DNA of 62,828 nt, from the NCBI GenBank assembly GCA_964457845.1, contig CAYWHP010000003.1, forward strand, positions 19,943 to 82,770, read 5' to 3'. Positions 2,896 through 56,185 of the stretch are shown here, in pieces. The notes under the pieces are model-generated. The model had not been told where the DNA came from. It searched no databases and saw nothing but the letters and a program-made list of their open reading frames with translations. Position 1 is the stretch's first letter; each line of letters opens with the position of its first letter. Both the position numbers and the translations under genes were made by a program. This DNA comes from an uncultured Porphyromonadaceae bacterium (GTDB lineage: Bacteria > Bacteroidota > Bacteroidia > Bacteroidales > UBA12481).

Positions 2896-2940
2896 AGTTG
2901 GGTTGCTTTATGGTTCTAAATTAATAAGAATCTTGAAAAG

Positions 2941-3110: not shown

Positions 3111-3124
3111 GTCGTTGCACCGCT

Positions 3125-3148
3125 GTCATCCCCGCGCAGGCGGGGATC
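3125..3148 (+). repeat. REP-like palindromic hairpin (GTCATCCC type)
   Basis: GTCATCCCCGCGCAGGCGGGGATC: stem ATCCCCGC/GCGGGGAT with a 4-nt loop. Related to the copies at 48527 and 49253-49344. Confidence 0.8.
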
Positions 3149-3222
3149 GCTACCCTTGCACGAACTGCCGGCAAAGCGTTATTTTTCCTATTTTTAGGAA
3201 CGCTGAACCAATACCATTTCCG

Positions 3223-6279: not shown

Positions 6280-6309
6280 GCCAATCCCGCAAAATGATCG
6301 CCGTCAGAA

Positions 6310-7854: not shown

Positions 7855-7886
7855 GGTTTGTTAATTAGTGTATGGAATACATTTAT

Positions 7887-7894
7887 CAAAGATA
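7887..7894 (-). promoter_or_regulatory. Bacteroidota -7 promoter element for the GH51 gene
   Basis: TATCTTTG on the minus strand, ~33 bp upstream of the ATG at 7854; matches TAnnTTTG. Confidence 0.55.
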
Positions 7895-7904
7895 ATGATT
7901 CCTT

Positions 7905-9086: not shown

Positions 9087-9187
9087 GGATTTTAGGTACC
9101 TTTTTCTTTTCTAATTTGAACAAATAGCCTGACACCTGCAAAGAAATGGCTAATTTTGATATTTAAGGACATAAAAAATCTCCCGTT

Positions 9188-11251: not shown

Positions 11252-11263
11252 CTTGAGTGAAAA

Positions 11264-11360
11264 CAATCGTAACGCGTGACACGTGACGCGTGACACGTGA
11301 CACGGAAAAATCGTAACACGATGCCTCGTGTTACGCGTCACGTGTTACGCGTCACGATTG
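11264..11360. repeat. Inverted heptamer array between convergent genes (long stem-loop)
   Basis: 11264-11290 and 11334-11360 are reverse complements at 25 of 27 positions. An inner perfect 9-bp hairpin CGTAACACG/CGTGTTACG spans 11312-11335. Confidence 0.92.
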
Positions 11361-11363
11361 CTC

Positions 11364-13763: not shown

Positions 13764-13799
13764 GCATGTAGGATTTAGGTCAGCGAAAGATAAATAAAT

Positions 13800-13950
13800 T
13801 CGTGACGCGTGACGCGTGACGCGCAGGAATCGTGACACGCGTCACGTATCACGAATCCCAAGCTTTAGGTGTCACGCGTCACGCATCACGCATCACGAAT
13901 CTCCCGCATCACGTGTCACGCGTCACGATTCTTCCTCGTCACTCGTCACT
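13800..13950. repeat. Inverted heptamer array (CGTGACG arm, then CGTCACG/CATCACG arm)
   Basis: TCGTGACGCGTGACGCGTGACGCGCAGGAATCGTGACACG followed by a longer run of GTCACGC/ATCACGC units ending CTCGTCACTCGTCACT. Confidence 0.92.
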
Positions 13951-13951
13951 A

Positions 13952-14683
13952 TCACCTTAACGAGGCCTTACTGAACACCGCCTCCGGAATCCCGCTGTTG
14001 AACAATATCTCCCTGATGATGAACTCCGTCCCGTCACCCGTCCTGAGCATGTCCCGGTAAACCATCCGCATCGGGAACCAGCGGCCGTCAACCCTTTTCA
14101 CGTCGTGGAGTGTGGTCTGTTTAAGGAGTTTACCTGCCCGGGCGTACCACTCTTCGCGCAACGGGATGCTGCGCTCCTGGTCAACCCATATCTTCATCCG
14201 CCAATAGGCTATTTCTTCGGATTTGGCCCGCAGCTCGAGCACCCAGCAAGGGCGACCGTCTACCTGATCGGGGCCGATGACCTCAGCATTGTAAATATCG
14301 GTCAGTTTCCGGTCGTCCATCATATCCTCATAAGAGAGATCCGACCCCATCACGGATTGCCGCAGCATGTGCCCTGAAATCTGGATAATACGGTCGGCCG
14401 ACGGGGAGAACATCCAGAGCTGGTCATCCAGTTTAAGCATCTTGGTACCTTTTTCGCGTGCCGGTGCCAGGTATTCGGTAAATGACTTCTTCGTTCCCTC
14501 CGACCACACCTTCATTTCCACGGTACGGTCGCCCCGCGGGCTGTGAACCACCATGGCGGCCGTCATTACCCGGCTGCTCGATGCCATATTCCTGTCGATC
14601 TGTTCAATAATCTGGCTGGCCGACGGATCCTGTCCGGCAAGCAGTGCCGGAAGAAGGGCCATCGATATCAGTAGTTTTCTCAT
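13952..14683 (-). CDS. Outer-membrane lipoprotein-sorting (LolA-like) periplasmic protein
   Basis: Signal peptide; EYLAPAREKGTKMLKLDDQLWMFSP, SVMGSDLSYED, GRPCWVLEL; overlaps the upstream permease stop (TAATG). Confidence 0.8.
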   Translation of the reverse strand: MRKLLISMALLPALLAGQDPSASQIIEQIDRNMASSSRVMTAAMVVHSPRGDRTVEMKVWSEGTKKSFTEYLAPAREKGTKMLKLDDQLWMFSPSADRIIQISGHMLRQSVMGSDLSYEDMMDDRKLTDIYNAEVIGPDQVDGRPCWVLELRAKSEEIAYWRMKIWVDQERSIPLREEWYARAGKLLKQTTLHDVKRVDGRWFPMRMVYRDMLRTGDGTEFIIREILFNSGIPEAVFSKASLR

Positions 14684-15951
14684 TATTCCAGTTCCTTAAA
14701 AAGTTGTGCCGTATTTCTTTTGTAAATCCCGATCCCTGAAAGCGAAGTACCCAGTACCGTTGCCAGCAGGCCGGGAATGAAACCGATGTAAAAAGAGGTT
14801 GGTGAAATTTCGGCGCGATAAACAGATGGCAGCATCATGGAGGCATTCTCCATGAACGACGATACGTCGAGGCCATTTTTTTGCATCCACCAGGCCAGCG
14901 AAAGCGCACCTGCGGACCCGATAACCGACCCGATGATCCCGACAAAAACCGATTCTGAAATCATCGAACGGTAAACATGGCCCTTGGTCTCGCCAACAGC
15001 CAGCCGGACACCAACTTCACCATACCGCCTGAGTCCGCCAAGAAGACCGGCATTCCAGAGTACGAGTGACATGGCCAGTACAAAAATCCCGACAAAAAGA
15101 GCGGAAACCACATCCATGTAATCAACCATGCTGCTGAGTCCGTTCTGGTCGCGAAGGCTGAGCATAACAGGGGTGAAAGGATTATCCGGCTTACTCTTTT
15201 CCATAAAGCCCGCGACAACTGAAGCGGCTGCTTCCTTGTTGAACACCCCGGTCCGGAAGTAACCCAGCACTTCACTGGCAGCATCCTGCATGTCGAGGGC
15301 AACCTGAACATCCCGCAGATCAGCGATTATGGCTCCCCGGTCGATTACGGATGTGCCGAACCGGACCGTACCGGCCACCCTGAAATTATAAACCGACATA
15401 CTCCCGTACATGGTCGATCCAACCAGTGTAATCCGGTCGCCCGGCACCACCTTGAGCTTATTGGCAAACTGCTCGCTCAACAGCACTTCACCGGGCCTTT
15501 CGGGCAGCCGTCCGGCAACGATTGACTTTGGTATGCTCATCCGTTCTGCTTCCCGCGAACCGGGTGAAAGCAGGTCGATCCCCCATCCTATTGCAGGGCC
15601 CTGCGACCGGGTTTCTCCATTTTCGTCCGGTGCATCAATCAGTCCGCCGAACCGGATCCGCTGGATCCACTCAAGATCCGGGTATTCCGCGTTTAACTCA
15701 CCGATCAGCCCGGCCGTATTCGAGAGTGCGAGATCGTTGGGCATCTGGTCAACCCGCTCGGCAAAGGAGCGTGTAGTTACCTTAACATGTCCGGTGGAGA
15801 AACGCGCATTGAAATCAACCAGGTCGCCAAGAACACCCGACATCAGGCACTGCAGGAATACAGTGAGAAAGACCCCGATCACAACAACAATAACCGGAAG
15901 CAGGCTTCGCTGGCGATCACGCCACAACCCTTTGAACAGGAATACTATCAT
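14683..15951 (-). CDS. ABC transporter permease, LolE/FtsX/MacB family
   Basis: KGLWRDRQRSLL start, large periplasmic loop, RRYGEVGVRLAVG motif, three C-terminal TM helices. Confidence 0.9.
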   Translation of the reverse strand: MIVFLFKGLWRDRQRSLLPVIVVVIGVFLTVFLQCLMSGVLGDLVDFNARFSTGHVKVTTRSFAERVDQMPNDLALSNTAGLIGELNAEYPDLEWIQRIRFGGLIDAPDENGETRSQGPAIGWGIDLLSPGSREAERMSIPKSIVAGRLPERPGEVLLSEQFANKLKVVPGDRITLVGSTMYGSMSVYNFRVAGTVRFGTSVIDRGAIIADLRDVQVALDMQDAASEVLGYFRTGVFNKEAAASVVAGFMEKSKPDNPFTPVMLSLRDQNGLSSMVDYMDVVSALFVGIFVLAMSLVLWNAGLLGGLRRYGEVGVRLAVGETKGHVYRSMISESVFVGIIGSVIGSAGALSLAWWMQKNGLDVSSFMENASMMLPSVYRAEISPTSFYIGFIPGLLATVLGTSLSGIGIYKRNTAQLFKELE

Positions 15952-17120
15952 TGTATTTTTCCTTTTATTGCTTCAGTTGGATTCATTCGGGAAATCCGGC
16001 GAGCCGGAATATAACTCACAATCGTCGCGGTGACCAGAACAATAAGTATGGTCAATGCGATCAAGCCAAGTCCGTATACCGGAAATATCTTATCGGCAAT
16101 GGCAAAGCCCATATTGTCAGTCCCTTCCGGCATAGGTATCCCGCCTCTGGCTGAGGAGATCAGCAGGGGAATACCATAGGCGGCTCCAACCAGGGCGGCA
16201 AGAACGGCATGCATGGCGCCTTCAACGGTAAACAAACGGACCACCTGCCCACGGGTCATACCAAGGGCGATCTCCGTTCCGATTTCACGCTGGCGGCGGA
16301 AAATCGACAGCACCTGCGTATCGAAAATGGCCAGCATGGCGAGGGAAAGAAGGATCACATACATGATACCGGTTGAAAACGATTTTGCCTTAATAACCTT
16401 GTCAACGTCCTCGGTAAGTGTTTTCTGGTCCCTGGTTACCCATCCTGCAGGCAAACCGTCAGGCCAGCCGGCCTTACCACGGATGATCAGGGTTGCACCG
16501 TCCGGAACACCCATCATCTGCTGCAACCTTTCAAGAGGGATCCATATCTGGCCTGCATCAACCGAGCCTACATTACAGCTGAAAACCGCGGTTATCTTCA
16601 CATCGGCGGCATCGAAAGTTCCCAGTCTGTTGCGCCAGCGTACCGTAACTTCATCACCAACCTTCAACCGGTTGGTCGCCGCCATCCGCTTCCCGATAAT
16701 CGCCGGAATACTGGTATTCCCGCCCGTCATGGAAGCGGTTGGCAGGTCGAGAACCTTCTGATTTACGGGTATTCCTTTCAAAAGGATGCTTTGTATTCTC
16801 CCTTCAGGATAGAAAGCCCCCATGGTGATGAGAACCGGTGCCAGGTTCCCCTTTTCTATATCACCGCGCAAAAGGTCCGGAACAGGGGCAATACTGTTCT
16901 GGAGCGTAAACGGATCAACAGGATCGTAATTAGTATTCCAGAGCTGGCCCTGACCGGTGTCCCAGTGGATCATGTCGGACTTTGCCTGTATGTTCCACCC
17001 GTCGAGCATGCCATGCATGTAAATGATAACCACATAGGAAAGAGACAACACCAGCACGTTGAGCCACGTCCGCAGTCCGGCCCCCAGGAGGTTCTTTATG
17101 GCGAGTTTAACTATCAGCAT
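15948..17120 (-). CDS. ABC transporter permease, LolE/FtsX/MacB family
   Basis: LAIKNLLGAGLRT start, RRQREIGTEIALGM motif, ends YIPARRISRMNPTEAIK. Confidence 0.92.
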   Translation of the reverse strand: MLIVKLAIKNLLGAGLRTWLNVLVLSLSYVVIIYMHGMLDGWNIQAKSDMIHWDTGQGQLWNTNYDPVDPFTLQNSIAPVPDLLRGDIEKGNLAPVLITMGAFYPEGRIQSILLKGIPVNQKVLDLPTASMTGGNTSIPAIIGKRMAATNRLKVGDEVTVRWRNRLGTFDAADVKITAVFSCNVGSVDAGQIWIPLERLQQMMGVPDGATLIIRGKAGWPDGLPAGWVTRDQKTLTEDVDKVIKAKSFSTGIMYVILLSLAMLAIFDTQVLSIFRRQREIGTEIALGMTRGQVVRLFTVEGAMHAVLAALVGAAYGIPLLISSARGGIPMPEGTDNMGFAIADKIFPVYGLGLIALTILIVLVTATIVSYIPARRISRMNPTEAIKGKIQ

Positions 17121-19063: not shown

Positions 19064-21376
19064 TTACAGGTCTCCATATATGGCCACCTCATGCCTGCCC
19101 CGGCTGTCGGCACAAGCGCGGTACATACCTGGTGAATTGAATACGAGGGCGATATTACCGTCCTTGTCAACCGCAATAATACCACCTTCTCCGCCGGCCG
19201 GCTTCAATCGCTTCATGATCACCTCGTCTGCCGCCTGCTGAACAGTCATCCCCTTGTATTCCATAAGCGCGGCGATCTCCCGGGCAACGGTGTAGCGTAT
19301 AAAGAACTCACCGTGGCCTGTTCCGGAAACCGCACACGATTTATTGCTTGCGTAGGTGCCGGCACCGATCACAGGAGTATCACCGATCCGGTTCCATCGC
19401 TTGTTGGTCATGCCCCCCGTGGATGTCCCTGCGGCGAGATTGCCGTTTGAATCGAGCGCCACACAGCCAACCGTGCCAAACTTGTTTTCCTTCTCCCGGG
19501 CAATGGCCCGCTGAAGATCCTTCCATCTTCGTTCGGTATAGAAATAGGTGCTGTCGACGATTTCGAGCCCGTTCTCCCTTGCGAACTGTGTGGCACCGGC
19601 GCCCGAAAGCATAACATGCGGCGATGCTGTCATCACCTTGCGGGCCAGCGTAATCGGATTCTTAACGTTCCGCACCCCGGCCACGGCCCCTGCCATGAGG
19701 TTGGATCCATCCATCACTGAGGCATCAAGCTCGTTATAGCCTTCATGGGAAAAGACCGCGCCCTTTCCGGCATTAAAAAGCGGGCAATCCTCCATAACCC
19801 TTACTACATTTTCAACCGCATCCATCGAGGTACCGCCTGTCGCAAGAATGCGGGTGCCAACCGTCAGCGCGGAGTCGAGCATGTGCAGGAACTCTTTTTC
19901 CAGCTCGGGCGGCAAATTCGCTTTAAGGATCACACCTGCCCCGCCGTGTATGGCGATGGCATATCGCGGCCTCTCCTGCGCCCCGGCAACTCCGGCGGTC
20001 AACAGCAGCAATACAAGCAGTCCGGCACCCGGGAGCATGCTCATCGTGCTCTTCAAGGGTCTGCCGAGTTTTTCAAGTCTTCTTTTACGCATCATATAAA
20101 TTAGATATCCGGAGACGATAAATAAAAGGAAAAACAGAATTTTTAACCATGCCTTTAAATCATAAATAATGATCAGTCCAAAAAAGACAACCATCAGGAG
20201 ACCCACCGAAACAGATACTTTCAGCCAGAATGGTGACAACCTGAATACGGATCTTGCATATGCATCCGGATACTTCTTCGGAAACCTCCAGGCTGCCAGC
20301 AGTATCGGCAGAAAAATAACCAGCCCGCCCAATGAGGCATAGGAGGCAAAGGTATTCAGCGAGAAACCCGATACTACACCCAATATCGACAGAACATAAA
20401 TTAAGGTCAGCAGCACCCACGGAACCTGGTGACGGGCCGTCAGCCGCCCCATCCAGAATGGAAGCATGTTGTCCTGCACCATCATCAGCAAGGATCGGGT
20501 ACCAATGATCAGCAGCGAGTTAAGTGTTGTGAGCAACGCGAGAACCGCTCCGCCAAGAATGAAAAAGATGTATACCCCGGATGAGAGGTTAGCCTTTCCA
20601 GCCACAACCAGCGGTTCTTCAGCACCAGCAAGCGATGCAGCAGGCACCGAACCGACCGTAACCCATGCAACCCCGATATAGAGCAATGCCACCAGCGGAA
20701 ACGCAATAAAAAAAGCCCTGGGGATGTTCTTCCCCGGATTCCGGATCTCGGATCCGATCTCGATAATCCCGTTGCCCCCGAAATAGGTAAAGGTGAGCAG
20801 GGCAAAACCCAGAATAAGATTGCCTGGCCCCTTTTCCAGCAAAGGCTTGAAATTTCCGGGATCAACCCGGTCGGAGCCTCCGGCAATAAAAATCACCAGC
20901 GCCCCGATCAAAAGGATAACCAGTACCCCCTGAATCTGCGCAGCAATGCGAACACCGAGCAGGTTTATCAGATAGAAGAATGTTAAAATGGCAATCGCAA
21001 CAGGGATGATCTCAATGCCGGGCAAAAGTGCCTGAATATATCGGGCACAGCCAATAAGGTAAAGCGGAATCTGGCCAAAAAATGAAGCCAGTGCATATAC
21101 CCAGACTCCGGTAAAGGCGAGCCCGGGCGAAACCATCCGGCTGGCATACATATAGTTAGCCCCGGATACTGGCATGGCCGACCCCAGCAGTGCCAGCGGC
21201 AGCATACTGATGAATACGGGAATCACTGCCAGGGCATAGGCGAGCGGCAGTGCCTGGCCACAGTACCGGTAAACGATACCGGTATAAACAAAAATCCCGC
21301 CGCCGATCATGAACCCGATCACGATGTACGACACCAGCGCGAGGCCGATCTTGTTCCGGAACTGGATGGAACTCAT
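19064..21376 (-). CDS. APC-family amino acid permease fused in frame to an isoaspartyl peptidase/L-asparaginase type 2 (Ntn hydrolase)
   Basis: aa 1-444 is a multi-TM APC permease (IGGGIF, YFGGNGIIEIGSEIRNPGKNIPRA). aa 445-770 has a signal-like segment, then AIHGGAG, PLFNAGKG and FGTVGCVA (Thr nucleophile). No stop separates the two parts. Confidence 0.85.
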   Translation of the reverse strand: MSSIQFRNKIGLALVSYIVIGFMIGGGIFVYTGIVYRYCGQALPLAYALAVIPVFISMLPLALLGSAMPVSGANYMYASRMVSPGLAFTGVWVYALASFFGQIPLYLIGCARYIQALLPGIEIIPVAIAILTFFYLINLLGVRIAAQIQGVLVILLIGALVIFIAGGSDRVDPGNFKPLLEKGPGNLILGFALLTFTYFGGNGIIEIGSEIRNPGKNIPRAFFIAFPLVALLYIGVAWVTVGSVPAASLAGAEEPLVVAGKANLSSGVYIFFILGGAVLALLTTLNSLLIIGTRSLLMMVQDNMLPFWMGRLTARHQVPWVLLTLIYVLSILGVVSGFSLNTFASYASLGGLVIFLPILLAAWRFPKKYPDAYARSVFRLSPFWLKVSVSVGLLMVVFFGLIIIYDLKAWLKILFFLLFIVSGYLIYMMRKRRLEKLGRPLKSTMSMLPGAGLLVLLLLTAGVAGAQERPRYAIAIHGGAGVILKANLPPELEKEFLHMLDSALTVGTRILATGGTSMDAVENVVRVMEDCPLFNAGKGAVFSHEGYNELDASVMDGSNLMAGAVAGVRNVKNPITLARKVMTASPHVMLSGAGATQFARENGLEIVDSTYFYTERRWKDLQRAIAREKENKFGTVGCVALDSNGNLAAGTSTGGMTNKRWNRIGDTPVIGAGTYASNKSCAVSGTGHGEFFIRYTVAREIAALMEYKGMTVQQAADEVIMKRLKPAGGEGGIIAVDKDGNIALVFNSPGMYRACADSRGRHEVAIYGDL

Positions 21377-25051: not shown

Positions 25052-25678
25052 ATGAAAAAAACAGTTACACTGTTCGCCTTCGTTGCATTGATCGTCTTTC
25101 AGGCTCATGCAGTTAAGCACACAATTACCTACAGCGGGTTCAACTATTCCCCGGCCACCCTTACCGTGCATGTCGGTGATACGGTAACCATCCAGGCCTC
25201 AGTGAGCCATCCGATTCTTCAGGTGAGCAAAGCCACATGGAACGCCAATGGCACAACCGGACTATCCGGAGGTTTCATGAAAACCACAAAGAATTATACT
25301 ATGACGGTAGCTTCTCAGGATACTATCTGGTACATCTGCATCGATCATGTTGAGTACGGCATGAAAGGAAAGATTGTTGTAGCAGCTCTTGCAGGAGTTG
25401 AGGATGCCCCCGGACCGGCAATAAATGTTTCATTTTACCCTAACCCGGTTTCCGAAAAAGGAACGGTAAAAATCTCAGGCGCTGAACAGGCATCCTTTAC
25501 TGTTGGAGTCTTCAGCATCAGCGGACAGCTGCAGCAGGATCTCTCCCGTTCACTCACCCGGATCGGAGGCGACCAGTATGCGACGTTCGACGCCAGCACC
25601 ATGCCGGCCGGCAACTATTTTGTTCTTGCCGCCAGCGGCAAGTCCAGGATGGTTAAAAAGTTTGAGGTCATCCGTTGA
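25052..25678 (+). CDS. Plastocyanin-like cupredoxin with a T9SS type A sorting domain
   Basis: Signal peptide; YSPATLTVHVGDTV; His in SHPI and CIDHVEYGM (C-x2-H-x4-M type-1 Cu set); CTD FYPNPVSE...GNYFV...KKFEVIR. Confidence 0.85.
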   Translation: MKKTVTLFAFVALIVFQAHAVKHTITYSGFNYSPATLTVHVGDTVTIQASVSHPILQVSKATWNANGTTGLSGGFMKTTKNYTMTVASQDTIWYICIDHVEYGMKGKIVVAALAGVEDAPGPAINVSFYPNPVSEKGTVKISGAEQASFTVGVFSISGQLQQDLSRSLTRIGGDQYATFDASTMPAGNYFVLAASGKSRMVKKFEVIR

Positions 25679-27463
25679 TTCGCACCCCAAGCCGAGGGCA
25701 ACGGCTTCTGCAAAATCCATAACAGGAATATCTGCGACCGGGCTAAAAGCTTTCTTGCATAGCGGGCAGGCGGTAACCAACAGGTCCGGATTAGCAGCAG
25801 CAAGTTCACCGAAGGCGGTACGGGCCACTGTTCGCCTGGTGGCCAGTGAAAGTGAAGGAGCCCCCAGGCTGCTGCCACAGCAAAGTCCACCGGTAGCCGG
25901 AGTGACATCAGCAGCAAAAAGCCTGGCCATAATTTCACGGGGCTCCCTGACAACCCCGGAACCCCTGCCAAGCTCGCAAGGCTCATGATACGCAGCTTTC
26001 AGCGCGGAACGCACAGGTCGTATCCGGTTCCAGTCCATCAGCTGCAAAAGGTATTCGGTATGATGCATGACACGCATCCCCGGCAATATATACTCTTCGC
26101 GAAACATGCGGTAGCAGATCGGGCACGAAGTAATAAGCAGTTCTGCCCCCGACGACAAAAAATCATCCTGGAGCTGTTCCCGGATACGTGCCGCCCCGGC
26201 GTCCTGTCCGGCCAGCTTTAATGGTCTCCCGCAGCAGGCCCTGCCGCCTGAATCGTAAAACTGCCAGTCGGCACCAGCTTCACTGAAAATCCTGGTCATC
26301 GAATGGATTATTCCGGGTGTCAGATGGGTCATGCAACCGGCAAAATAGAGCACTCTTCCTGTATGTTTGTTCTGTCGGCCGTGCCCCATGGTCACACACT
26401 GGGTGCCTAACAACACGTCCTCGCGTGAAAGGTGTCTTATCGGCATAAGGTCGAGGCCAACGGGACAAGCCTCCTCACAGCGGCCGCACTGCAGGCAATC
26501 CCATTGGATATCCGACTGTCGGCCATACCTCACCGATCGGATAAAGTAATTGCTTTGAATCCGTCTGCCGGGCAATGCATCCGTCAACTGGCAGGCATCC
26601 ATGCAAATACCGCAGCCGGAGCAGGCATGAAGCGAAAGGTCGGTAAAACCAGGCGAAGCTTTCGAAACCCGTATTCCGTACTTCCTCAGGAAAATCAGTA
26701 CGGCCTCGGAAGGAATATGGGCATATCGGGTGAATGGCAGGCTGATGAAGAAGACCATCAGAACAAATGAATAGGTCCACCAGAATGGCAAAACAAGCAG
26801 CGATGGATTCAGACCGGAGGCCAGAAGATGACCCAGGGTGCCCGTAAGAAAACTGCCTGTTCCATTGGCCCCGCAGGTGGCGCTTTCAGCCAGGAGCCGC
26901 ACCGGAAAAATCAGCCATAGTGCTGTCAGTCCGATACGGTCTGCAGGACGCTGACGGGTGGTATGCCGCATCCCCAGGGTGCGGGAATGAAGTCGTTTCC
27001 AAATGGCAAGGACCAGGCCGCTGAGCACCATGAGCAGAAAGAAATCCATCCAGAAAGCAAACCCGGGAAAGCCGGCCGCTTGCGGAAATGGCTGGCCCGG
27101 ATCGAAAAACCGCCAGAATACCGATACATAAATCGGCTTGAAAAGTCGCCCTGAATAATAGACGGATTCGATATTGCCGATCAGAATCAGCATGAACCAC
27201 CCAAACGCAAGACTCATGTGCATATACCCGAGCCGCCGGTTGGACAACCATATTTTCCGGTGAAGCAGAGACTCCCGTATCACCTCCAGTATTGCCCGCC
27301 AGGTTACAGCCGTGAACATTCCCCTGTTCAACAGCTCCTTATCGGCAGGCGACAGTTTCTCAATCCATCGTATAACCTTAAATATTAGGAATATACCGGC
27401 AAAGGTAAATCCAATGGTGAACAACACCACAAAAGGATCAAATGGATGGAATACCTTTTGCAT
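25550..27463 (-). CDS. Membrane-anchored Hdr-like Fe-S oxidoreductase: NarI/HdrE-like TM region, 2x[4Fe-4S] and two CCG domains (HdrD-like)
   Basis: About 5-6 TM segments with His in YMHMS and YAHIP; CSGCGICMDAC and CLQCGRCEEACP; AGCMTH/ACCGR/SCPIC and EPCEL/LCCGS/ACPLC. Confidence 0.85.
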   Translation of the reverse strand: MQKVFHPFDPFVVLFTIGFTFAGIFLIFKVIRWIEKLSPADKELLNRGMFTAVTWRAILEVIRESLLHRKIWLSNRRLGYMHMSLAFGWFMLILIGNIESVYYSGRLFKPIYVSVFWRFFDPGQPFPQAAGFPGFAFWMDFFLLMVLSGLVLAIWKRLHSRTLGMRHTTRQRPADRIGLTALWLIFPVRLLAESATCGANGTGSFLTGTLGHLLASGLNPSLLVLPFWWTYSFVLMVFFISLPFTRYAHIPSEAVLIFLRKYGIRVSKASPGFTDLSLHACSGCGICMDACQLTDALPGRRIQSNYFIRSVRYGRQSDIQWDCLQCGRCEEACPVGLDLMPIRHLSREDVLLGTQCVTMGHGRQNKHTGRVLYFAGCMTHLTPGIIHSMTRIFSEAGADWQFYDSGGRACCGRPLKLAGQDAGAARIREQLQDDFLSSGAELLITSCPICYRMFREEYILPGMRVMHHTEYLLQLMDWNRIRPVRSALKAAYHEPCELGRGSGVVREPREIMARLFAADVTPATGGLCCGSSLGAPSLSLATRRTVARTAFGELAAANPDLLVTACPLCKKAFSPVADIPVMDFAEAVALGLGCESTDDLKLFNHPGLAAGGKNKIVAGRHGAGVERRILVASDPGE

Positions 27464-27803
27464 GCTGCCGGTTCAATTGCATAATCTGAATCGAGAGGTA
27501 ACGGGTAGGAATACCGCGGGGGCACGCAAGCTGACATTTGCCGCACAGCATGCATGATTGCAGCGATAGCTGATCAGCTTCTTCTGCCGCAATCGATTGC
27601 CTTATCCGATAGTGGAGTTGCCGGAAATTGAATCTGCTGTTTTGCCCTGACGGACAGGTTGCCACACAGGATCCGCAATTTATGCATGACCTCCAGACCC
27701 CAATTACCTGATCAAGGCTTTCGGCCAGCCGGTTATCCGCCTCGTCGAGGTTGATCCTCCGGCTTTCACGGATGTCGAGACCAAATCTATTTGTTTTGAC
27801 CAT
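27438..27803 (-). CDS. HdrC-like 2x[4Fe-4S] ferredoxin
   Basis: CINCGSCVATCP and CMLCGKCQLACPRG. Confidence 0.85.
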   Translation of the reverse strand: MVKTNRFGLDIRESRRINLDEADNRLAESLDQVIGVWRSCINCGSCVATCPSGQNSRFNFRQLHYRIRQSIAAEEADQLSLQSCMLCGKCQLACPRGIPTRYLSIQIMQLNRQHAKGIPSI

Positions 27804-28860
27804 GCCCGTTTTTCCTCCTTAACCATGTAAATGCCTCTGCTGCTGCGCTCCGTCCGGAAGCGGCCGCTTCGGGTATACTAACCGGACCACCGCAGGCTCC
27901 TGCATAAAAGATGCCGTCTGTACCAGCCACGCTTTGACTGGTAAAGGGATTGTTTGATTTGATGAAACCGGTTTCCTCAACCACCGGCCTGGCACCGTCG
28001 ACGCCAACCGGGCATGAAGACGGCACCATTCCGGTGAGCAGCACCAGCCAATCGGCTGTAACCTTAAGCGGACGCGCCATTAGTGTGTCCTCGGCCTTCA
28101 GCACGATCCGGTGATCATGCGTTTCGGCGGCTTCGGAAACCCTTCCTCGTATAAACTGAATGTGGTGCTTTTCCTGTGCTTCGCGAAAGAGCTCCTCATA
28201 ACCGCTTCCGAATGCCCTCATATCGATATAAAAATTGATCACCCTGCACGCCGGGAATGCTTCGCGAATTTCAATCGCCTGCTTAATTCCCGTTATGCAA
28301 CAGAGACGGCTGCAATAATTGTTGCCAACCTGCTGATCGCGCGATCCAACGCAGTGCACAAAAGCCACGGTTGAGGGATCGCTTCCGCCGGCGCGAAGCT
28401 TGCCGGGATCATCAGCGAACATCCTCTCAAGATCGGGCGAAGTGATCACCTGTTTGTAGATGCCATAGCCGAACTCTTCCTTGAGCCCTGCGTCGAAGAA
28501 TTCGAAGCCGGTGGCCACAATAACCGAATCAGCTGTTCCCGCAATCCCATTGCCCGAAAGGAGCCGGAATCCCCCGTCGGCAGATTCGATTCCGCTGACA
28601 GCAGTACCGAAATGCAGAGATATCTCCTCGCGAGGTTCGTCGACGTTGAACTCAGCCAGCACATTTTCCGCCAAATCCCTGTCGGGAAAGAGACGGTGAT
28701 ACTCCTTTAGCTTGCCGCCAGCTTGCTTCTCCCTGTTGTACCAGTCGACCTGAGCCCCCAGGGCGGCGGCGGACTGCGCTGCGGAAATCCCGGCGGGGCC
28801 GGCCCCGATCACGGCAATCCGTGACCGTCTTACCGGTTTATCATCGTTGCTGTGCATCAT
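27787..28860 (-). CDS. hdrA: Short HdrA-like FAD/[4Fe-4S] oxidoreductase without ferredoxin inserts
   Basis: IAVIGAGPAG Rossmann fold, IVATG, FVHCVGSRD...NYCSRLCC, YIDMRAFG, DWLVLLTGM, YAGAC. Start placed at MMHSND (28860); the ORF track uses 28890. Confidence 0.85.
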   Translation of the reverse strand: MMHSNDDKPVRRSRIAVIGAGPAGISAAQSAAALGAQVDWYNREKQAGGKLKEYHRLFPDRDLAENVLAEFNVDEPREEISLHFGTAVSGIESADGGFRLLSGNGIAGTADSVIVATGFEFFDAGLKEEFGYGIYKQVITSPDLERMFADDPGKLRAGGSDPSTVAFVHCVGSRDQQVGNNYCSRLCCITGIKQAIEIREAFPACRVINFYIDMRAFGSGYEELFREAQEKHHIQFIRGRVSEAAETHDHRIVLKAEDTLMARPLKVTADWLVLLTGMVPSSCPVGVDGARPVVEETGFIKSNNPFTSQSVAGTDGIFYAGACGGPVSIPEAAASGRSAAAEAFTWLRRKNGHGQNK

Positions 28861-29905
28861 GAAAAGGTTGACACATTTCTGGTTCGCCAATTATCCGGCC
28901 ATCACGGTCGGAATATTTAGTTTCGGGATCATAGGGTATCCCAATCTTATCAAGCAACGATTCAACAGGCACCTGATGGGTCTGCAACCCAATTTCCCAG
29001 GGATCATAGCCAAGAACAATCCCCGCCAGCTCCTCGTGCGTAACAACAGGGATCTTCCTTCCTTCCGGTCCATACACGGTGCCCTCCGATTCCTCCAGTA
29101 CGTATTGCCAGCGATCGAGGAACATGGCGCAGCCCGGGCAGTTCGCCACGATCAGGTCGGGCTGGCATGGCTGCATCGATTCCAGCTTAATTTTCGATTG
29201 TGATATCGAATAGCCCCTGTTGGGCGGCATCAGGTAATTACGAAAACCAAAGCCGCAGCAGTGACGCCGCTCGGGATAGTCAACGGTTTCCCCTCCCCAG
29301 GCCGTTACCAGCCCTGCAAGCACCTGCGGAAACTCGGCACCGCCAACTCCACGCTCCGGAAAAGTCTTGGCATAGTGACAGCCGATGTGGTCAACCACCT
29401 TCAACGGCCGGCCCGTGACCCTGTCAACCAGCCGGAATTTCGCTATCGAGGCAATCTCTTCGCGGTATTTATAGAGAATATCGGAGGCATGAACCATATT
29501 GCCGGGTTCGGTAAAACTCCTCCCGGTGGCATCACTCAGAAAACCGGCAATCTTATCCTTCAGGTCGGGCTTGTGGTGCCACATATCCAGGATCTCGGAA
29601 TAGAGGCCAAAGGAGGTAACACAGGATACTACCAGGTTCCGGTATCCCTTTTCCTTCATCAGGGCAAACTGCCGCGCCACAACGGTCATCGTGGTTTCAA
29701 GAGGAATAATGTCGGTATGGTACCCGATGCCGGTGCAGGTTGTATGGTCGGCATCTTCAAAAATATTTTTTCCCAGCCGGTTGCGGAGTATATCAATAAA
29801 AAGGTTTTCAGCCCCCGGGAAAAAATTCTGCCGGATGCAGGAGCGGACGTAGAAGTAGTCGTCATCGGCTATCTCCTTTTGATAATCTTTCCAATATTTT
29901 GCCAT
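28841..29905 (-). CDS. hdrB: HdrB-like CCG-domain protein
   Basis: The second CCG domain is complete (IGCH, HCCGFG, NCPGC). The first is degenerate (RSC, TCTG, SCVTS). Confidence 0.85.
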   Translation of the reverse strand: MAKYWKDYQKEIADDDYFYVRSCIRQNFFPGAENLFIDILRNRLGKNIFEDADHTTCTGIGYHTDIIPLETTMTVVARQFALMKEKGYRNLVVSCVTSFGLYSEILDMWHHKPDLKDKIAGFLSDATGRSFTEPGNMVHASDILYKYREEIASIAKFRLVDRVTGRPLKVVDHIGCHYAKTFPERGVGGAEFPQVLAGLVTAWGGETVDYPERRHCCGFGFRNYLMPPNRGYSISQSKIKLESMQPCQPDLIVANCPGCAMFLDRWQYVLEESEGTVYGPEGRKIPVVTHEELAGIVLGYDPWEIGLQTHQVPVESLLDKIGIPYDPETKYSDRDGRIIGEPEMCQPFHDAQQR

Positions 29906-30553
29906 TCAACAACCTCCCGCTTCTGGTTCGTACGCTCCGCCTTCAATACTATCCCAATAGTCCATACATCCGGTAATCTCGAAGATCCGTGCGAGTTCTC
30001 CCAGTGCGGCAGGGCTGATTTTCCGCAAAAGACCCGGGCCGGCTTGATCGTATCCGCTGTCGAAGCGGCCATACACCTGATCCGCATTGCCTGACATCCA
30101 TTCCCATACGGGTCCCTGCTCGGGATGAGTGGCCGGATCTACCCGGGTTGGGTGAATGCAATAACCGGTTTCGAGGATGGTATGGCCGATGGCCCTTTTT
30201 ATTGAGAGCTGCTGTCTTCCCAGCCGGGAAGCAGTGAAAAGCCCTGTTCGTGTGGCAACCGAACGAAGAATCTGTATCATGGTCCCCGGCACGTTACCGC
30301 GCGGGCACCTGGGCTTGCAGCTCATACACTGGCCGCACTGCCAGATCATGTCCGACGAGAGCATTGCCTTTAGGGTTTCCTCATCCGCCTCAGTCACCAT
30401 GTTCATCATGATCCGCGGATCATAATCGTAATAGCCCGCTGCCGGGCATATTGCCGTGCAAACACCGCAGTTCAGGCAACTCCTGCATGCCTCCTCATAA
30501 CGTGGATCGGCCTGTATCAGAGCCAACAGATCGTCGTTTTTCATTTGTACCAA
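29906..30553 (-). CDS. hdrC: HdrC-like 2x[4Fe-4S] protein
   Basis: CRSCLNCGVCTAICP, YDPR, IWQCGQCMSCKPRCPRG. Confidence 0.88.
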   Translation of the reverse strand: MVQMKNDDLLALIQADPRYEEACRSCLNCGVCTAICPAAGYYDYDPRIMMNMVTEADEETLKAMLSSDMIWQCGQCMSCKPRCPRGNVPGTMIQILRSVATRTGLFTASRLGRQQLSIKRAIGHTILETGYCIHPTRVDPATHPEQGPVWEWMSGNADQVYGRFDSGYDQAGPGLLRKISPAALGELARIFEITGCMDYWDSIEGGAYEPEAGGC

Positions 30554-30645
30554 AACTACGTCAACCGATCCGTTCGCTTCTGCGAAGGAATACCGTAAAA
30601 CAGCGGAAAGGGTACCGAATTTCCGGAGTATAAATACCTACATTT

Positions 30646-31287
30646 TCACAATTCCACCAGCTTTTCCTTGATGGCATAAACAACGAGGCTGGCTGTATTC
30701 CGGCAACCGGTTTTAAGCAGAATGTTGGCACGATGGCTGTCGACCGTCCTTTTGCTCAGACAGAGGGAATCGGCAATTTCCTGTGTTGACATGCCCTTGC
30801 ATATCAGCAGGATAATCTCCTTCTCCCTGTCGGACAGCGGCGAATCCGGCGTCAGTTCTTCAGGTGCATTTTTAAGGGAGTTGACAAGGTTCATCAGAAG
30901 CTCCCTGGAAAAGTAATTGCCGCCCTCCATTACGGTTTCAAGGGCCATCCGCACCTCCGTAAAATCAGAATTCTTAAGCAGGAACCCTTTAACACCGGCA
31001 TCCACCATCTTGAAATAATAGTCCTGCTCCCCAAACATGCTGAGCGTAATGATTTTAAGGTCGGGATAAAGGGCCAGCGACTGCCGGGCCGCCTCAATGC
31101 CGTCCATTTCGGGCATCGCAATATCCAGCATCACGATGTCGGGCCTGGTAGTTCCAAGCATGTCCAGAAATTCAATCCCGTTGGAGGCCTCACCGGCTAC
31201 CTCAAAGCGGCCAAGTGTGTCGATCAGCATCCGAAGACCCTTACGGAAAAGTTTGTGGTCATCAACCAGCATTACCTTGTATTTCAT
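30646..31287 (-). CDS. NarL/LuxR-family response regulator
   Basis: MLVDDH, VMLDIAMP (phospho-Asp), GFLLKN, LSDREKEI...EIADSLCLSKRTVDSHRANI. Confidence 0.95.
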   Translation of the reverse strand: MKYKVMLVDDHKLFRKGLRMLIDTLGRFEVAGEASNGIEFLDMLGTTRPDIVMLDIAMPEMDGIEAARQSLALYPDLKIITLSMFGEQDYYFKMVDAGVKGFLLKNSDFTEVRMALETVMEGGNYFSRELLMNLVNSLKNAPEELTPDSPLSDREKEIILLICKGMSTQEIADSLCLSKRTVDSHRANILLKTGCRNTASLVVYAIKEKLVEL

Positions 31288-32243
31288 GGCTTTTTAGCAG
31301 CTTTAACTTTGATAAGGACACGGATCCCGAGGCCTGGTTTCGATTCCACCGTCAATTCGCCCCGGAGTGACTTTATCCTGGATTGTATATTGGTAAGCCC
31401 TGACCCTTCCCGGGTGTTTTCACGCATCGCCCGTTCGGCCTCAAAACCGATCCCGTTGTCCTGGTAATCAAGAATAAGTTCACCTGCTTCATGGGCAATA
31501 GCCATAACGGCCCGGCTCGCCTGGGCATGTTGTATGGTATTGTTGATCAGCTCGCTGGCTACCCGATACACAACCACCTCCACATTCTCATCAAAACGCT
31601 CGCTCCTCAGGCTGGTTTGAAAGGCAATATCGAGTTGACCTGTCTGGTTGATTTTCTGCACATAATTGGCCAAAGCCCTGATCATTCCGAAATTGGCCAG
31701 CACATGCGGACTCAGATGATCCGAAATCTCCTTAAGGCTCCGGATCGCTTCATCAACTGTTTCAGTGGCATTCCGGATAATGGTGAGGCTCTGCTTGTCG
31801 GCTGCCAGCTGCTCCAGGGTCGAAACCGACATCTTTACCGCACTCAGCAAAGGGCCCATCCCATCATGCAGGTCCTTGGCGATCCTCGTCCGCTCGGCCT
31901 CTTCGGTCTGAATAATTGCTGTCAGGAAACGCTTTTCCGTCTTCCGCCGCTCCGTCTCCACCTTCTTCATGTAATTGAATATCTGCTGGATCAGATAAAC
32001 CCCCACCGCAAACACCACTGAGGTAATTACCCCCATCCATATGTACAGTTCCCTGAAATAATCCGGCTTGTAGCTGCTTATGAAAGGAAGGAACTCGATA
32101 AACCGGAGAATAACCATCAAAAGAAACCCGATGGTAATGAGAATCCATGAAAGGGCGTATTTGGTGACACTGAACAATTTCAATGCGATGCCGGCAGCAA
32201 TCAGCTGGACGATAATCGAGAACGCCAGAACAAATTTGAGCAT
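31284..32243 (-). CDS. HisKA_3 (NarX/UhpB-type) sensor histidine kinase with a short intramembrane sensor region
   Basis: About 3 N-terminal TM helices; ERTRIAKDLHDGMG H-box; ELINNTIQHA, DNGIGF, GSGLTNI; 4-bp overlap with the response regulator. Confidence 0.93.
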   Translation of the reverse strand: MLKFVLAFSIIVQLIAAGIALKLFSVTKYALSWILITIGFLLMVILRFIEFLPFISSYKPDYFRELYIWMGVITSVVFAVGVYLIQQIFNYMKKVETERRKTEKRFLTAIIQTEEAERTRIAKDLHDGMGPLLSAVKMSVSTLEQLAADKQSLTIIRNATETVDEAIRSLKEISDHLSPHVLANFGMIRALANYVQKINQTGQLDIAFQTSLRSERFDENVEVVVYRVASELINNTIQHAQASRAVMAIAHEAGELILDYQDNGIGFEAERAMRENTREGSGLTNIQSRIKSLRGELTVESKPGLGIRVLIKVKAAKKP

Positions 32244-51309: not shown

Positions 51310-51327
51310 GATCGGGTTTCTTACGGG

Positions 51328-54812: not shown

Positions 54813-54832
54813 TGAATAATCCTCCGGTTATA

Positions 54833-55699: not shown

Positions 55700-55702
55700 A
55701 TC

Positions 55703-56128: not shown

Positions 56129-56185
56129 TTTTGTTAATCTAAAAACGATCAAAAGTAGACCCGAAGAAACTCTTAAAAATTGCTA

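Follow-up and report, generated by a model that had tools for sequence, protein, structure and literature searches.

An sHdr-like gene cassette with an EtfD/EMO-like membrane subunit and an adjoining two-component system in a Bacteroidota bacterium

Organization and conservation of the locus

The window, by which we mean the whole 62.8-kb stretch of DNA analysed here, derives from an anaerobic Bacteroidota bacterium, and a reading of its open reading frames (ORFs) places five Hdr-like genes on the minus strand between positions 25550 and 30553. In order, they encode an HdrC1-like protein (C1), an HdrB1-like protein (B1), a short HdrA (A), a small HdrC2 (C2), and a membrane protein (TM) that carries two [4Fe-4S] and two CCG motifs. 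The C1/B1 junction is 0 bp, and the remaining genes overlap by 20 nt (B1/A), 17 nt (A/C2), and 26 nt (C2/TM), as anticipated in an earlier note on this DNA that had described an abutting or overlapping C-B-A-C-membrane cassette; the overlaps would fit co-transcription. The C1-B1-A-C2-TM order is retained in 39 of 42 metagenome loci, a count confined to those with enough sequence room, and the arrangement is therefore not a product of chance. Carriers of the cassette include fermenters of the gut and of digesters. A literature search found no paper that describes the cluster, consistent with the suggestion of the earlier note that the complex is uncharacterised, and the module is thus conserved yet unstudied.

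The soluble subunits

The ORF of C1 spans positions 29906–30553 of the minus strand. Its likelier start codon is the ATG at 30544 (gene 29906–30544): the TTG at 30553 lies inside a −7-like motif, and relatives begin at the ATG. C1 is a ferredoxin subunit with two CxxCxxCxxxCP motifs, corresponding to two [4Fe-4S] clusters, and a long C-terminal extension; its top NCBIfam match is HdrC, and, of the proteins encoded in the reference loci, sHdrC1 is the most closely related (33% over 189 aa). The second ferredoxin, C2 (27438–27803, minus strand; 121 aa), likewise has two [4Fe-4S] motifs by Pfam, NCBIfam, and sequence, and in related loci it is always situated between A and the membrane subunit.

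B1 (28841–29905, minus strand; 354 aa) aligns over its full length with the HdrB profile (NF041780, 1e-44), with Pfam detecting one CCG domain only. The N-terminal CCG domain retains three of five cysteines (C23, C57 in TCTG, and C95 in SCVTSFG), and the C-terminal domain is complete (C176, C216/C217, C256, and C259). The motifs (T/S)CT(G/A), C(V/G)TSFG, and CCGFGFR are common to B1 and the sHdrB1 proteins of lbpA-containing clusters, and this unusual cysteine pattern is absent from HdrB, sHdrB2, and other B subunits. sHdrB1 is also the closest match of B1 among the reference loci. Across related loci B1 shows the strongest conservation of the five subunits (median 65% identity), as expected for a catalytic subunit, and it is the probable catalytic site.

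The flavoprotein A (27787–28860, minus strand; 357 aa from the ATG) contains a GxGxxG motif for FAD and a CVGSRD-x9-CSRLCC motif for one [4Fe-4S] cluster, and no ferredoxin motifs or domains are found in its sequence. It is matched over its full length by sHdrA (PDB 6TJR; 1e-48). Phylogenetic analysis places A in a Bacteroidota clade (SH-aLRT 100) within a group of stand-alone short HdrA proteins (97) that includes the 6TJR sHdrA; the Bacteroidota clade is separate from the checked lbpA-carrying clusters, and the basal members of the stand-alone clade are encoded in textbook sHdr loci (L010 and L012), together with tusA, dsrE, lbpA, and lipoate-maturation genes. The tree, the affinities of B1 and C1, and the B1 cysteine pattern bear out the proposal of an sHdr-like soluble core. 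The soluble NAD(H) module that had been proposed alongside it finds no support, since the sole dinucleotide motif of A is that for FAD and, in the HdrA fold, the CVGSRD cluster motif occupies the position of the NAD(P)H loop of thioredoxin-reductase-type enzymes.

A shares with the HdrA of methanogen HdrABC (5ODC, 8RVV) the thioredoxin-reductase-like core with its CxGSRD...CSxxCC motif (core match, 1e-54), and the two systems also have HdrC-type ferredoxins and the HdrB-type CCG fold in common. HdrA is the bifurcating subunit of the methanogen complex, two distinct Fe-S arms would extend from one flavoprotein here, and the organism encodes Rnf (Pfam annotation of the window ORFs) and thus uses low-potential ferredoxin. 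These points would suit flavin-based bifurcation or confurcation, with the HdrA flavin set between a high-potential arm (C2, the membrane subunit, and menaquinone) and a low-potential arm (C1-B1 and the substrate). We judge such a mechanism quite improbable, because both the ferredoxin domains (N-terminal, inserted, and C-terminal) and the MvhD/hydrogenase partner are missing, where in bifurcating HdrA these domains and MvhD provide the third electron path, so that the bifurcation layout of HdrABC is not present. Moreover, the surroundings of the cassette in related loci contain no conserved gene for a third donor or acceptor, and two arms alone leave nothing to bifurcate unless the flavin directly meets a soluble substrate, for which no binding motif was seen.

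The membrane subunit

The fifth gene (25550–27463, minus strand) encodes a protein of 637 aa whose invariant residues, family profile, AF2 model, and Foldseek match all indicate an EtfD/EMO/HdrED architecture. It has five predicted transmembrane helices, eight cubane cysteines (two [4Fe-4S], C281–C333), and a non-cubane-cluster domain with two complete CCG motifs and all ten cysteines (C377, C410/411, C447, C450, C496, C528/529, C566, and C569). The roughly 40 C-terminal residues form an unconserved tail that overlaps a convergent cupredoxin gene. Sixty homologues all retain H82 and H249, and, given this invariance and a weak local alignment, the two residues are candidates for the heme-b histidine pair. 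The best PDB match of the family profile is EtfD (9OJN; 1.3e-30), and the alignment sets H82 opposite the heme ligand His78 and W89 opposite the quinone-stacking Phe85. With the AF2 model (pLDDT 86.7) as query, 9OJN is the sole whole-length Foldseek match (E 9e-19, TMq 0.61). Full-length agreement with menaquinone-reducing EtfD/EMO by profile and fold substantiates the quinone-type anchor proposed in the earlier note.

In EtfD and EMO, electrons have been shown to reach (methyl)menaquinone by a route that leads from non-cubane to cubane clusters and on to heme b (PMC13083937; bioRxiv 10.64898/2026.08.18.745454). The membrane subunit has the same single-chain order as Mycobacterium smegmatis EtfD (9OJN) and Syntrophus aciditrophicus EMO, with five transmembrane helices, two [4Fe-4S] clusters of the cubane type, and a two-CCG non-cubane domain, although identity to EtfD is only ∼16%. 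Whereas the distal cluster is altered in both EtfD and EMO, and EtfD binds a linear [3Fe-4S] cluster with four Cys and uses His583, the ten HdrB-type cysteines are all kept here; in addition, there is no ETF partner, and the gene lies inside an Hdr operon. By description, Methanosarcina HdrDE likewise combines a b-type cytochrome membrane part with a catalytic part that resembles HdrC/HdrB and has complete CCG motifs. In contrast to HdrDE, the two parts are fused in one chain here and combined with HdrA, C1, B1, and C2, menaquinone would take the place of methanophenazine, and the HdrDE substrate CoM-S-S-CoB is not expected in Bacteroidota.

Neighbouring genes and relation to sHdr systems

When the main ORFs of the window were annotated with Pfam, neither mvhD, flx, etf, dsr, or tusA nor a rhodanese or GcvH-like gene came to light, and a tblastn search of the window with LbpA, TusA, DsrE, sHdrH, and LplA from genuine sHdr loci returned nothing at E ≤ 1 above noise, in agreement with the absences listed in the earlier note. 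Genes for lbpA, tusA, dsrE, and lipoate maturation are missing beside the cassette both in the window and in seven related loci, and in ∼90 related loci queries from genuine sHdr loci detected neither LbpA nor TusA nor DsrE over distances of up to 8 kb.

These absences set the locus apart from type I sHdr (shdrC1B1AHC2B2 plus lbpA; Hyphomicrobium denitrificans, Aquifex aeolicus; 6TJR), which otherwise shares with it the C1-B1-A-C2 order with a B-type CCG module after C2, a short HdrA that lacks ferredoxin domains, a C1 with a long C-terminal extension, and a B1 with a degenerate N-terminal and complete C-terminal cysteine pattern. At the present locus the sHdrH gene is absent, C2 is half as large, and the place of B2 is taken by a 600-aa protein that has five membrane helices, a putative heme-b His pair, and two cubane clusters of its own; the regulator of type I systems is an ArsR-type repressor, in place of which a two-component system is found (see below). 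Type II clusters (shdrC1B1AHB3-etfAB-emo; Sulfobacillus, Chloroflexota, Actinobacteriota), compared by description, couple the C1-B1-A core to an EMO-type membrane protein, as here; they carry etfAB-emo, and their electrons are proposed to go to menaquinone (PMC11094781). With neither etfAB nor the B3 fusion at this locus, the EMO-like protein would be fed directly via C2 and not by ETF.

Published sHdr systems are described as never lacking the company of lbpA, tusA, dsrE, and lipoate-maturation genes, and in sulfur oxidisers lbpA, tusA, and dsrE are typically clustered with shdr (PMC11094781), as in L010 and L012. Their absence nearby implies that B1 chemistry may differ or that the carriers are encoded elsewhere. 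The second option would make the cassette an ordinary lipoate-dependent sHdr with a membrane anchor, in a facultative dissimilatory sulfur oxidiser whose LbpA, lipoate ligase/maturases, and TusA/DsrE relay lie elsewhere in the genome. Gene clusters may indeed be split, the core and the B1 signature are both those of sHdr, and the sHdrH gene is absent even from the genuine lbpA-linked cluster L012. Nevertheless, the lack of LbpA, TusA, and DsrE within the up to 8 kb searched at each of the ∼90 loci and the presence of gut and digester fermenters among the carriers render this explanation improbable.

In sister lineages a cysteate synthase or cysteine synthase gene lies 25–33 bp downstream of the cassette. 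The former (L016/L017) scores 457 bits against TIGR03844 (cut-off 325) and was not found in the window; the latter (cysKM, 362 bits) is the next gene after the cassette in L029, L052, and L053. These sulfur-incorporating PLP enzymes are the only functionally suggestive recurrent operon neighbours, and they speak against a non-sulfur dehydrogenase or generic electron input, in which an organic substrate would be oxidised and the CCG proteins would be mere wires to quinone, as in EMO, GlpC, GlcF, and LutA. CCG domains do act purely as wires in EMO and EtfD (bioRxiv 10.64898/2026.08.18.745454), and the membrane subunit has weak NCBIfam matches to TfrB, LdhH, GlpC, and GlcF. However, these scores fall far below the family cut-offs (e.g., 87 vs 385 bits), no subunit of the cassette groups with a characterised non-sulfur enzyme, and the window contains no GlcD, GlpA/B, LutB/C, ETF, or acyl-CoA dehydrogenase partner, nor do related loci conserve one. 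We regard a non-sulfur function as highly improbable.

A two-component system and candidate control elements

Upstream of C1 lie genes for a response regulator (30646–31287, minus strand; 213 aa) and a sensor histidine kinase (31284–32243, minus strand; 319 aa), which overlap by 4 nt. The kinase is composed of three N-terminal membrane helices, as read from the sequence, followed by HisKA_3 and HATPase_c (Pfam); its core is of the NarX/LiaS/UhpB type, and no extracytoplasmic domain is evident in its sequence. The regulator has a receiver and a LuxR/GerE helix-turn-helix (Pfam) and is of the NarL/UvrY type by NCBIfam, with scores below cut-offs. In L001, L003, L004, L005-7, L008, L018, L019, L054, L055, and L068 a kinase lies immediately upstream of the cassette, and the two-component system lies 5′ of C1 in 11/60 informative related loci across several lineages of the B1 tree. 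This recurrence identifies the kinase and regulator as part of the module. The five enzyme genes of the unit described in the earlier note stand, and its extent is to be widened: the whole unit is seven genes, a histidine kinase, a regulator, and a five-gene enzyme operon, with the palindrome upstream of C1 belonging to it as well.

That 10-bp palindrome, GTATTTATAC (30628–30637), is an exact match to GTATWWATAC located 84 bp upstream of the C1 ATG. It is the single match in the 62.8-kb window, against 0.06 expected; in 25 of the 61 dereplicated related loci the motif lies no more than 300 bp upstream of C1, with six matches elsewhere in these loci (764 kb), which is a strong enrichment. The palindrome is a candidate operator of the response regulator, which we infer to bind it. 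Just 5′ of the C1 ATG, TAGTTTTG (30551–30558, minus strand) matches the Bacteroidota −7 promoter consensus TAnnTTTG and is a candidate promoter of the five-gene operon; similar matches lie near the C1 start in L004, L005, L008, L018, L019, L054, L055, and L082.

Proposed function and direction of electron flow

The module joins the catalytic core of the sHdr of sulfur oxidisers to a membrane protein of the menaquinone-feeding, heme-b kind. We give about even credence to the reading that it is a sensor-controlled, membrane-bound, menaquinone-linked sHdr variant oxidising reduced sulfur species in the cytoplasm. The enzyme would probably act oxidatively on a cytoplasmic sulfur compound, possibly yielding sulfite; both direction and substrate are inferred from the features above. 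In such a scheme, the non-cubane Fe-S site of B1, which is of the sHdrB1 type, would oxidise sulfane sulfur, a persulfide, or thiol-bound sulfur, and C1, by way of its two cubane clusters, would hand the electrons on to the FAD/[4Fe-4S] HdrA dimer. From there, they would move via C2 to the non-cubane clusters of the membrane subunit, its two cubane clusters, a single heme b near the cytoplasmic face, and menaquinone. The product would probably be sulfite, as with sHdr, menaquinol would be re-oxidised by an anaerobic or microaerobic respiratory chain, and the sensor pair may turn the operon on via the GTATWWATAC site. The cysteate or cysteine synthase of sister lineages may be counted in favour of this sulfur role.

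Two of these features bear on the opposite direction as well: the ten-cysteine membrane subunit could be a second catalytic disulfide site and not a wire, and a neighbouring cysteine synthase would fit sulfide production too. Run reductively in the manner of HdrDE, the same complex would use menaquinol, possibly with another donor, to reduce an S-S bond at B1, at the membrane CCG site, or at both. A low-molecular-weight disulfide, polysulfide, or S-sulfocysteine formed from thiosulfate by a CysM-type enzyme might serve as substrate, and the products would be thiol or sulfide, with sulfite in addition from S-sulfocysteine. The full cysteine pattern of catalytic HdrB/HdrD, the overall layout of a fused HdrE-HdrD, and the cysteine synthase adjoining the cassette in L029, L052, and L053 are in keeping with reduction, and S-sulfocysteine cleavage would be a source both of cysteine and of the sulfite needed by the L016/L017 cysteate synthase. 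We nonetheless consider the reductive direction unlikely, if a possibility to be kept in mind. Menaquinone (∼−74 mV) can take electrons from the sulfide/sulfite couple (∼−116 mV), whereas menaquinol is a weak donor for most disulfides, and the B1 signature is that of the sulfur-oxidising sHdrB1 rather than of reductive HdrB. The single predicted heme near the cytoplasmic face is of the EtfD type, which reduces menaquinone (PMC13083937).

A five-gene cassette for an Hdr-like complex

Five abutting or overlapping open reading frames occupy the minus strand of the window at 25550-30553. The first, C1 (29906-30553), carries two CxxCxxCxxxCP motifs and has HdrC as its best curated match, and B1 (28841-29905) aligns end to end to HdrB models and to HdrB chains in the PDB. 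The third product, A (27787-28860), is a short HdrA of 357 residues with an FAD-type GxGxxG loop and a CVGSRD-x9-CSRLCC motif. It is followed by C2 (27438-27803), a 121-residue ferredoxin with two clusters, and by TM (25550-27463), a 637-residue protein whose N-terminal half is hydrophobic and which also carries two cubane and two complete CCG motifs. C1 and B1 adjoin with 0 bp between them, and the B1/A, A/C2, and C2/TM junctions overlap by 20, 17, and 26 nt, respectively. An earlier note, made from the sequence by itself, had described these genes and is correct in all points that can be checked (ORFs, motifs, overlaps, and stated absences). Pfam annotation of the main ORFs of the window yields no mvhD, flx, etf, dsr, tusA, rhodanese, or GcvH-like gene, and the combination of Pfam and tblastn upholds the claim that the window lacks mvhD, flx, etf, dsr, tusA, rhodanese, and lipoate-binding genes.

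The 3′ end of the TM gene overlaps a convergent T9SS cupredoxin gene (25052-25678) by 129 bp (25550-25678). The last ∼40 of the 637 TM residues are missing in most homologues (600-620 aa), have pLDDT values <50, and look like an unconserved read-on tail.

Relationship of A, B1, and C1 to sHdr subunits

The flavoprotein A aligns over its full length with sHdrA, the homologue from sulfur oxidisers (PDB 6TJR; 1e-48), whereas the alignment with methanogen HdrA (1e-54) covers only the thioredoxin-reductase-like core, in two pieces that flank an inserted domain. In a tree built after searching 1.8 billion representative proteins, all stand-alone short HdrA proteins form a single clade (SH-aLRT 97) that excludes the long multi-domain HdrA/HdrL proteins. 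The branches of 6TJR and its relatives are close to the base of this clade, and the window protein falls in a 36-row Bacteroidota subclade (support 100) that is separate from the 6TJR-bearing branch and whose named members are Bacteroidales, Breznakibacter, Prolixibacteraceae, and Lentimicrobium. Gene contexts agree with this split. The reference locus L010, from a 6TJR relative, reads tusA-dsrE-dsrE-C1-B1-A-H-C2-B2-lbpA-trx-dsrE-lbpA-rSAM, and L012, from another basal member, reads arsR-C1-B1-A-C2-B2-lbpA-lbpA-rSAM-lplA-rSAM; all members of the Bacteroidota subclade that were looked up have the membrane fusion in place of B2, and all are without lbpA. The earlier note had also proposed an NAD(H) module, which is unsupported, as the FAD loop is the sole loop of this kind in A.

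The L012 cluster (6288-16919) is a genuine lbpA-linked sHdr cluster that has an ArsR-type regulator and no sHdrH between A and C2; thus, H is not universal in type I clusters. On the Firmicutes-like contig L013 (266-5065), a short HdrA is encoded in a C-B-A-only Hdr-like cluster without C2 or B2, adjoining genes for a hybrid-cluster (prismane) protein and a CoA-transferase, and this locus is a further undescribed setting in which a member of the stand-alone HdrA clade occurs. Neither P0336 nor P0377, both examined as possible type II etfAB-emo loci, proved to be of this type: one is a C-B-A-only cluster next to a hybrid-cluster protein, and the other a B-A-C-B stretch whose contig begins within the cluster.

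The best reference match of B1 is sHdrB1 of L012 (34% over 323 aa), and C1 is closest to sHdrC1 among the reference loci (33% over 189 aa). In the first CCG domain, B1 and sHdrB1 share a departure from the classical motifs, with (T/S)CT(G/A) in place of ‘CCG’ and C(V/G)TSFG in place of ‘CxxC’, so that three of the five cysteines are left; the second domain has a full set of cysteines and includes the motif CCGFGFR. Methanogen HdrB, sHdrB2, and the B subunits of L011 (L011_B1) and L013 (L013_B) keep the classical motifs and lack those of the sHdrB1 type. Across related loci, median identity to the window is highest for B1 (65%) as compared with 37-49% for the other subunits, and this standing as the most conserved subunit fits a catalytic role. 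The resemblance to sHdr that had been noted earlier is thus borne out by the position of A in the short-HdrA clade with 6TJR and by the affinity of B1 and C1 for sHdrB1 and sHdrC1.

The membrane subunit resembles EtfD

Among 60 TM homologues, H68, H82, and H249 are invariant, as are the eight cubane and ten CCG cysteines. The best PDB match of the family profile is Mycobacterium smegmatis EtfD (9OJN; 1.3e-30). In a weak local profile alignment of the membrane part, H82 lines up with His78, a heme ligand of EtfD, and W89 with Phe85, which stacks on the quinone (PMC13083937); the H82-H249 spacing of 167 residues is close to the 163 residues between His78 and His241, the axial heme-b histidines of EtfD. 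An AlphaFold2 model of TM (pLDDT 86.7) contains five membrane helices, and in a Foldseek search of the PDB, 9OJN alone matches the model over its whole length (E 9e-19, TMq 0.61), whereas HdrB and LutA structures match only the CCG part. The predicted protein thus has the EMO/EtfD architecture of five transmembrane helices, two cubane clusters, and a 2xCCG domain in one chain, and the quinone-type anchor put forward in the earlier note gains support from the profile and from the modelled fold.

In EtfD and in the EMO of Syntrophus, electrons have been shown by experiment to pass from a cytoplasmic flavin through non-cubane clusters, cubane clusters, and heme b to (methyl)menaquinone (PMC13083937; bioRxiv 10.64898/2026.08.18.745454). 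TM has a single conserved His pair near the cytoplasmic face, a candidate heme ligand pair that would correspond to that of mono-heme EtfD. It differs from EtfD/EMO in that the distal cluster is altered in EtfD/EMO, whereas TM keeps the full HdrB/HdrD set of ten cysteines, and in that EtfD/EMO proteins work with an ETF, whereas TM is without such a partner: etfAB is absent from the window and from the neighbourhood of the cassette in related loci.

Comparison with known systems

The syntenic core shdrC1-B1-A-H-C2-B2 is the criterion for type I sHdr (PMC11094781). In the window, C1-B1-A-C2 occur in this order, the 17-nt overlap of A with C2 leaves no place for H, and B2 is replaced by the membrane fusion. 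Type I traits that are present include a short HdrA that lacks ferredoxin domains and clusters with sHdrA in the tree and, as judged from its motifs, a putative catalytic subunit of the sHdrB1 type. The usual company is missing: tblastn searches of the window and seven related loci with queries from L010 and L012 did not find LbpA, TusA, DsrE, sHdrH, LplA, or lipoate radical-SAM proteins, and LbpA, lipoate-maturation, and TusA/DsrE genes are likewise found in none of 80 metagenome loci (the best 80 of at least 414 by B1 similarity). Type II clusters (shdrC1B1AHB3 with etfAB/emo) were contrasted by cluster description rather than against a type II EMO sequence; on this basis, the window contains an EMO-like protein and neither an ETF gene nor a B3 fusion. 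Assignment of the cassette to type I or type II sHdr, whether by synteny or by the presence of LbpA and sulfur transferase genes alongside, is not supported.

Other Hdr-related enzymes were considered and rejected. A bifurcating HdrABC is at odds with the lack of N-terminal, inserted, and C-terminal ferredoxin domains in A and of mvhD in the window. QmoABC has two HdrA-like genes and the cassette only one; the qmoC model scores 39.9 bits against a cut-off of 300, on C1 only, and the QmoC order of an HdrC domain followed by an HdrE-like membrane domain is reversed in TM, where the membrane part comes first. GlpC, GlcF, LutA, LdhH, and TfrB models reach 47-87 bits against cut-offs of 278-800, and no GlpAB, GlcDE, LutBC, or fumarate-reductase flavoprotein gene adjoins the cassette. 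The earlier note had named grouping of the subunits with a characterised non-sulfur enzyme as grounds against its reading; no subunit groups in this way, the scores for these non-sulfur families being far below cut-off.

Distribution of the cassette and its sensor pair

Directly upstream of C1 on the minus strand lies a gene for a LuxR-type response regulator (30646-31287), preceded by one for a HisKA_3 histidine kinase (31284-32243) whose N-terminus consists of three membrane helices with no outside domain. The block HK-RR-C1-B1-A-C2-TM recurs amid differing flanking genes in two Bacteroidota MAGs (L001 and L003), a complete 5.4-Mb genome (L004), Prolixibacteraceae-type digester contigs (L005-7), and another assembly (L008). 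The module is bigger than five genes, and the sensor pair belongs to it.

A search of genome contigs with HdrA gave only three loci. The cassette is common, as a single metagenome scan with a B1 alignment detected at least 414 relatives, human-gut contigs included, of which the 80 loci with the highest B1 similarity were retained. The order C1-B1-A-C2-TM is kept in 39 of the 42 metagenome loci with enough room, and the sensor pair lies upstream of the cassette in 11 of 60 informative loci. These 11 fall in several separate lineages of the B1 tree, including the deepest if the tree is rooted on sHdrB1, a long branch that makes the root uncertain.

Two metagenome loci (L045 and L079) have C1-B1 without downstream A, C2, or TM despite contig room and may represent a truncated or rearranged form of the cassette. 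In L001, the module is flanked (2846-4159 and 11230-16858 in L001 coordinates) by a tyrosine integrase on one side and by a Crp/Fnr regulator, a DUF5777 barrel, multiheme c-type cytochromes, and a cytochrome b561 on the other; the label of this MAG, ‘Chitinophaga pinensis’, looks doubtful for an anaerobe-type locus.

A conserved palindrome and candidate promoter upstream of C1

The spacer between the regulator and C1 contains a palindrome, GTATTTATAC (30628-30637), of the pattern GTATWWATAC, which occurs exactly once in the 62.8-kb window against an expectation of 0.06. Among 61 dereplicated related loci, the pattern lies ≤300 bp upstream of C1 in 25 (mostly at -60 to -125), as compared with 6 matches in 764 kb elsewhere in the same loci. 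As 19 of these 25 loci have no adjacent sensor pair, the site is associated with the cassette itself rather than only with the genes next to it. With one mismatch allowed, 8 matches are found in the window against 2.5 expected, which does not indicate a regulon. A match to the Bacteroidota -7 promoter motif TAnnTTTG, TAGTTTTG (30551-30558), precedes the C1 ATG at 30544 and recurs in relatives. C1 thus probably starts at this ATG and not at the TTG inside the -7-like motif, and the two elements near C1 suggest that the five genes probably have their own regulated promoter. The palindrome is a candidate operator to which the LuxR-type regulator may bind. A sigma-70/terminator scan, which covers no Bacteroidota promoters, gave as many matches as expected from shuffling and was set aside.

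The regulator-to-C1 spacer is enlarged in two related loci, by short tandem repeats with GGGATCACG and GTCCCCTTC units in L082 (∼2680-2840) and by ∼1 kb of inserted sequence with repeats in L068. Both retain the C1-proximal GTATWWATAC.

Sulfur-related neighbours

Two contigs from different samples, L016 and L017, encode an HdrA of the same Bacteroidota clade; in both, the TM gene is followed after 25 bp by a gene whose product reaches 457 bits against TIGR03844, the cysteate synthase model (cut-off 325). In three further loci (L029, L052, and L053), a cysteine synthase gene (cysKM, 362 bits) begins 33 bp after the TM gene. The window contains neither enzyme; the cysteate synthase neighbour belongs to the one sister lineage of L016/L017 and is absent from all 80 of the metagenome loci most similar in B1, out of at least 414. 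The sulfur link is real and restricted to particular lineages. It is compatible with production of sulfite; the cysteine synthase neighbour fits equally a reductive role or S-sulfocysteine cleavage. Neighbouring thyA-folA, rubrerythrin, pdxA, pstCAB, and mscS genes look incidental.

Proposed mechanism and direction

In published models of sHdr, an HdrA dimer bears two arms, one formed by C1B1 and the other by C2B2 (PMC11094781). Were these contacts conserved in the present complex, C2 would dock on the non-cubane domain of TM, by analogy with the HdrC:HdrB interface. Electrons could then run from this domain through the cubane clusters of TM and its heme to menaquinone along an EMO-type wire, and the complex would link an sHdrB1-type site to the quinone pool, a job for which etfAB-emo has been proposed in type II sHdr.

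We favour the oxidative direction because B1 is of the sulfur-oxidiser type, because the membrane part resembles the menaquinone-reducing EtfD, and because menaquinone (∼-74 mV) would be a feasible acceptor for the sulfide/sulfite couple (∼-116 mV) and a poor donor for disulfides. The full proposal, which we advance tentatively and hold to be possible rather than probable as a whole, is that the cassette encodes a third, lipoate-independent type of sHdr, a self-contained five-subunit enzyme coupled through heme b to menaquinone that makes sulfite from sulfide or sulfane sulfur in the absence of oxygen. Such an enzyme would provide an unrecognised respiratory electron input and the so-far missing sulfite source for cysteate and sulfonolipid synthesis in anaerobic Bacteroidota, gut lineages included, and in environmental lineages like that of the window it would be switched on by the dedicated membrane-embedded kinase and the LuxR-type regulator at the conserved GTATWWATAC operator.

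Methanogens, sulfate reducers, and lithotrophic sulfur oxidisers are known to have Hdr-type non-cubane Fe-S enzymes. A conserved menaquinone-wired version in fermentative, polysaccharide-degrading Bacteroidota would be a new entry point for sulfur into anaerobic respiration, and would show that an EtfD/EMO-type membrane wire can be fed by an Hdr flavoprotein rather than an ETF. If the enzyme makes sulfite, it would explain how cysteate synthase is supplied for sulfonolipids, immunologically active gut lipids, in strict anaerobes. The cassette also offers a smaller, LbpA-free system for working out the function of the sHdrB1 site, with the sensor pair and operator as direct experimental handles on the inducing signal. 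Literature searches turned up work on sHdr types I and II, on EMO/EtfD, and HdrA surveys, with no mention of this Bacteroidota arrangement, and Bacteroidota do not appear in the main text of the principal survey of where sHdr occurs. New here are the sensor pair and the candidate operator, the signature in B1, and the comparison with EtfD at residue level; the cysteate and cysteine synthase neighbours were checked independently.

Host genes elsewhere in the window

Pfam annotation of the surrounding genes identifies T9SS cargo, a GH2 enzyme, an arabinofuranosidase, and a fucosidase; the host is an anaerobic, polysaccharide-degrading member of the Bacteroidota. A complete Rnf operon (RnfB, C, D, G, E, A; 50737-55699, minus strand) is preceded by an RseC/MucC-family gene in a block spanning 50737-56152, which indicates that the organism uses a ferredoxin:NAD+ membrane complex and fits an anaerobic lifestyle.

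Two unusual reading frames had also been pointed out earlier. In the first (19064-21376, minus strand), an amino-acid permease (residues 15-421) and a type-2 asparaginase/isoaspartyl peptidase domain (473-767) are indeed found fused in a single 770-residue ORF. In the second (48049-49242, plus strand), the TsaD family matches in two separate stretches, consistent with the reported in-frame insert.
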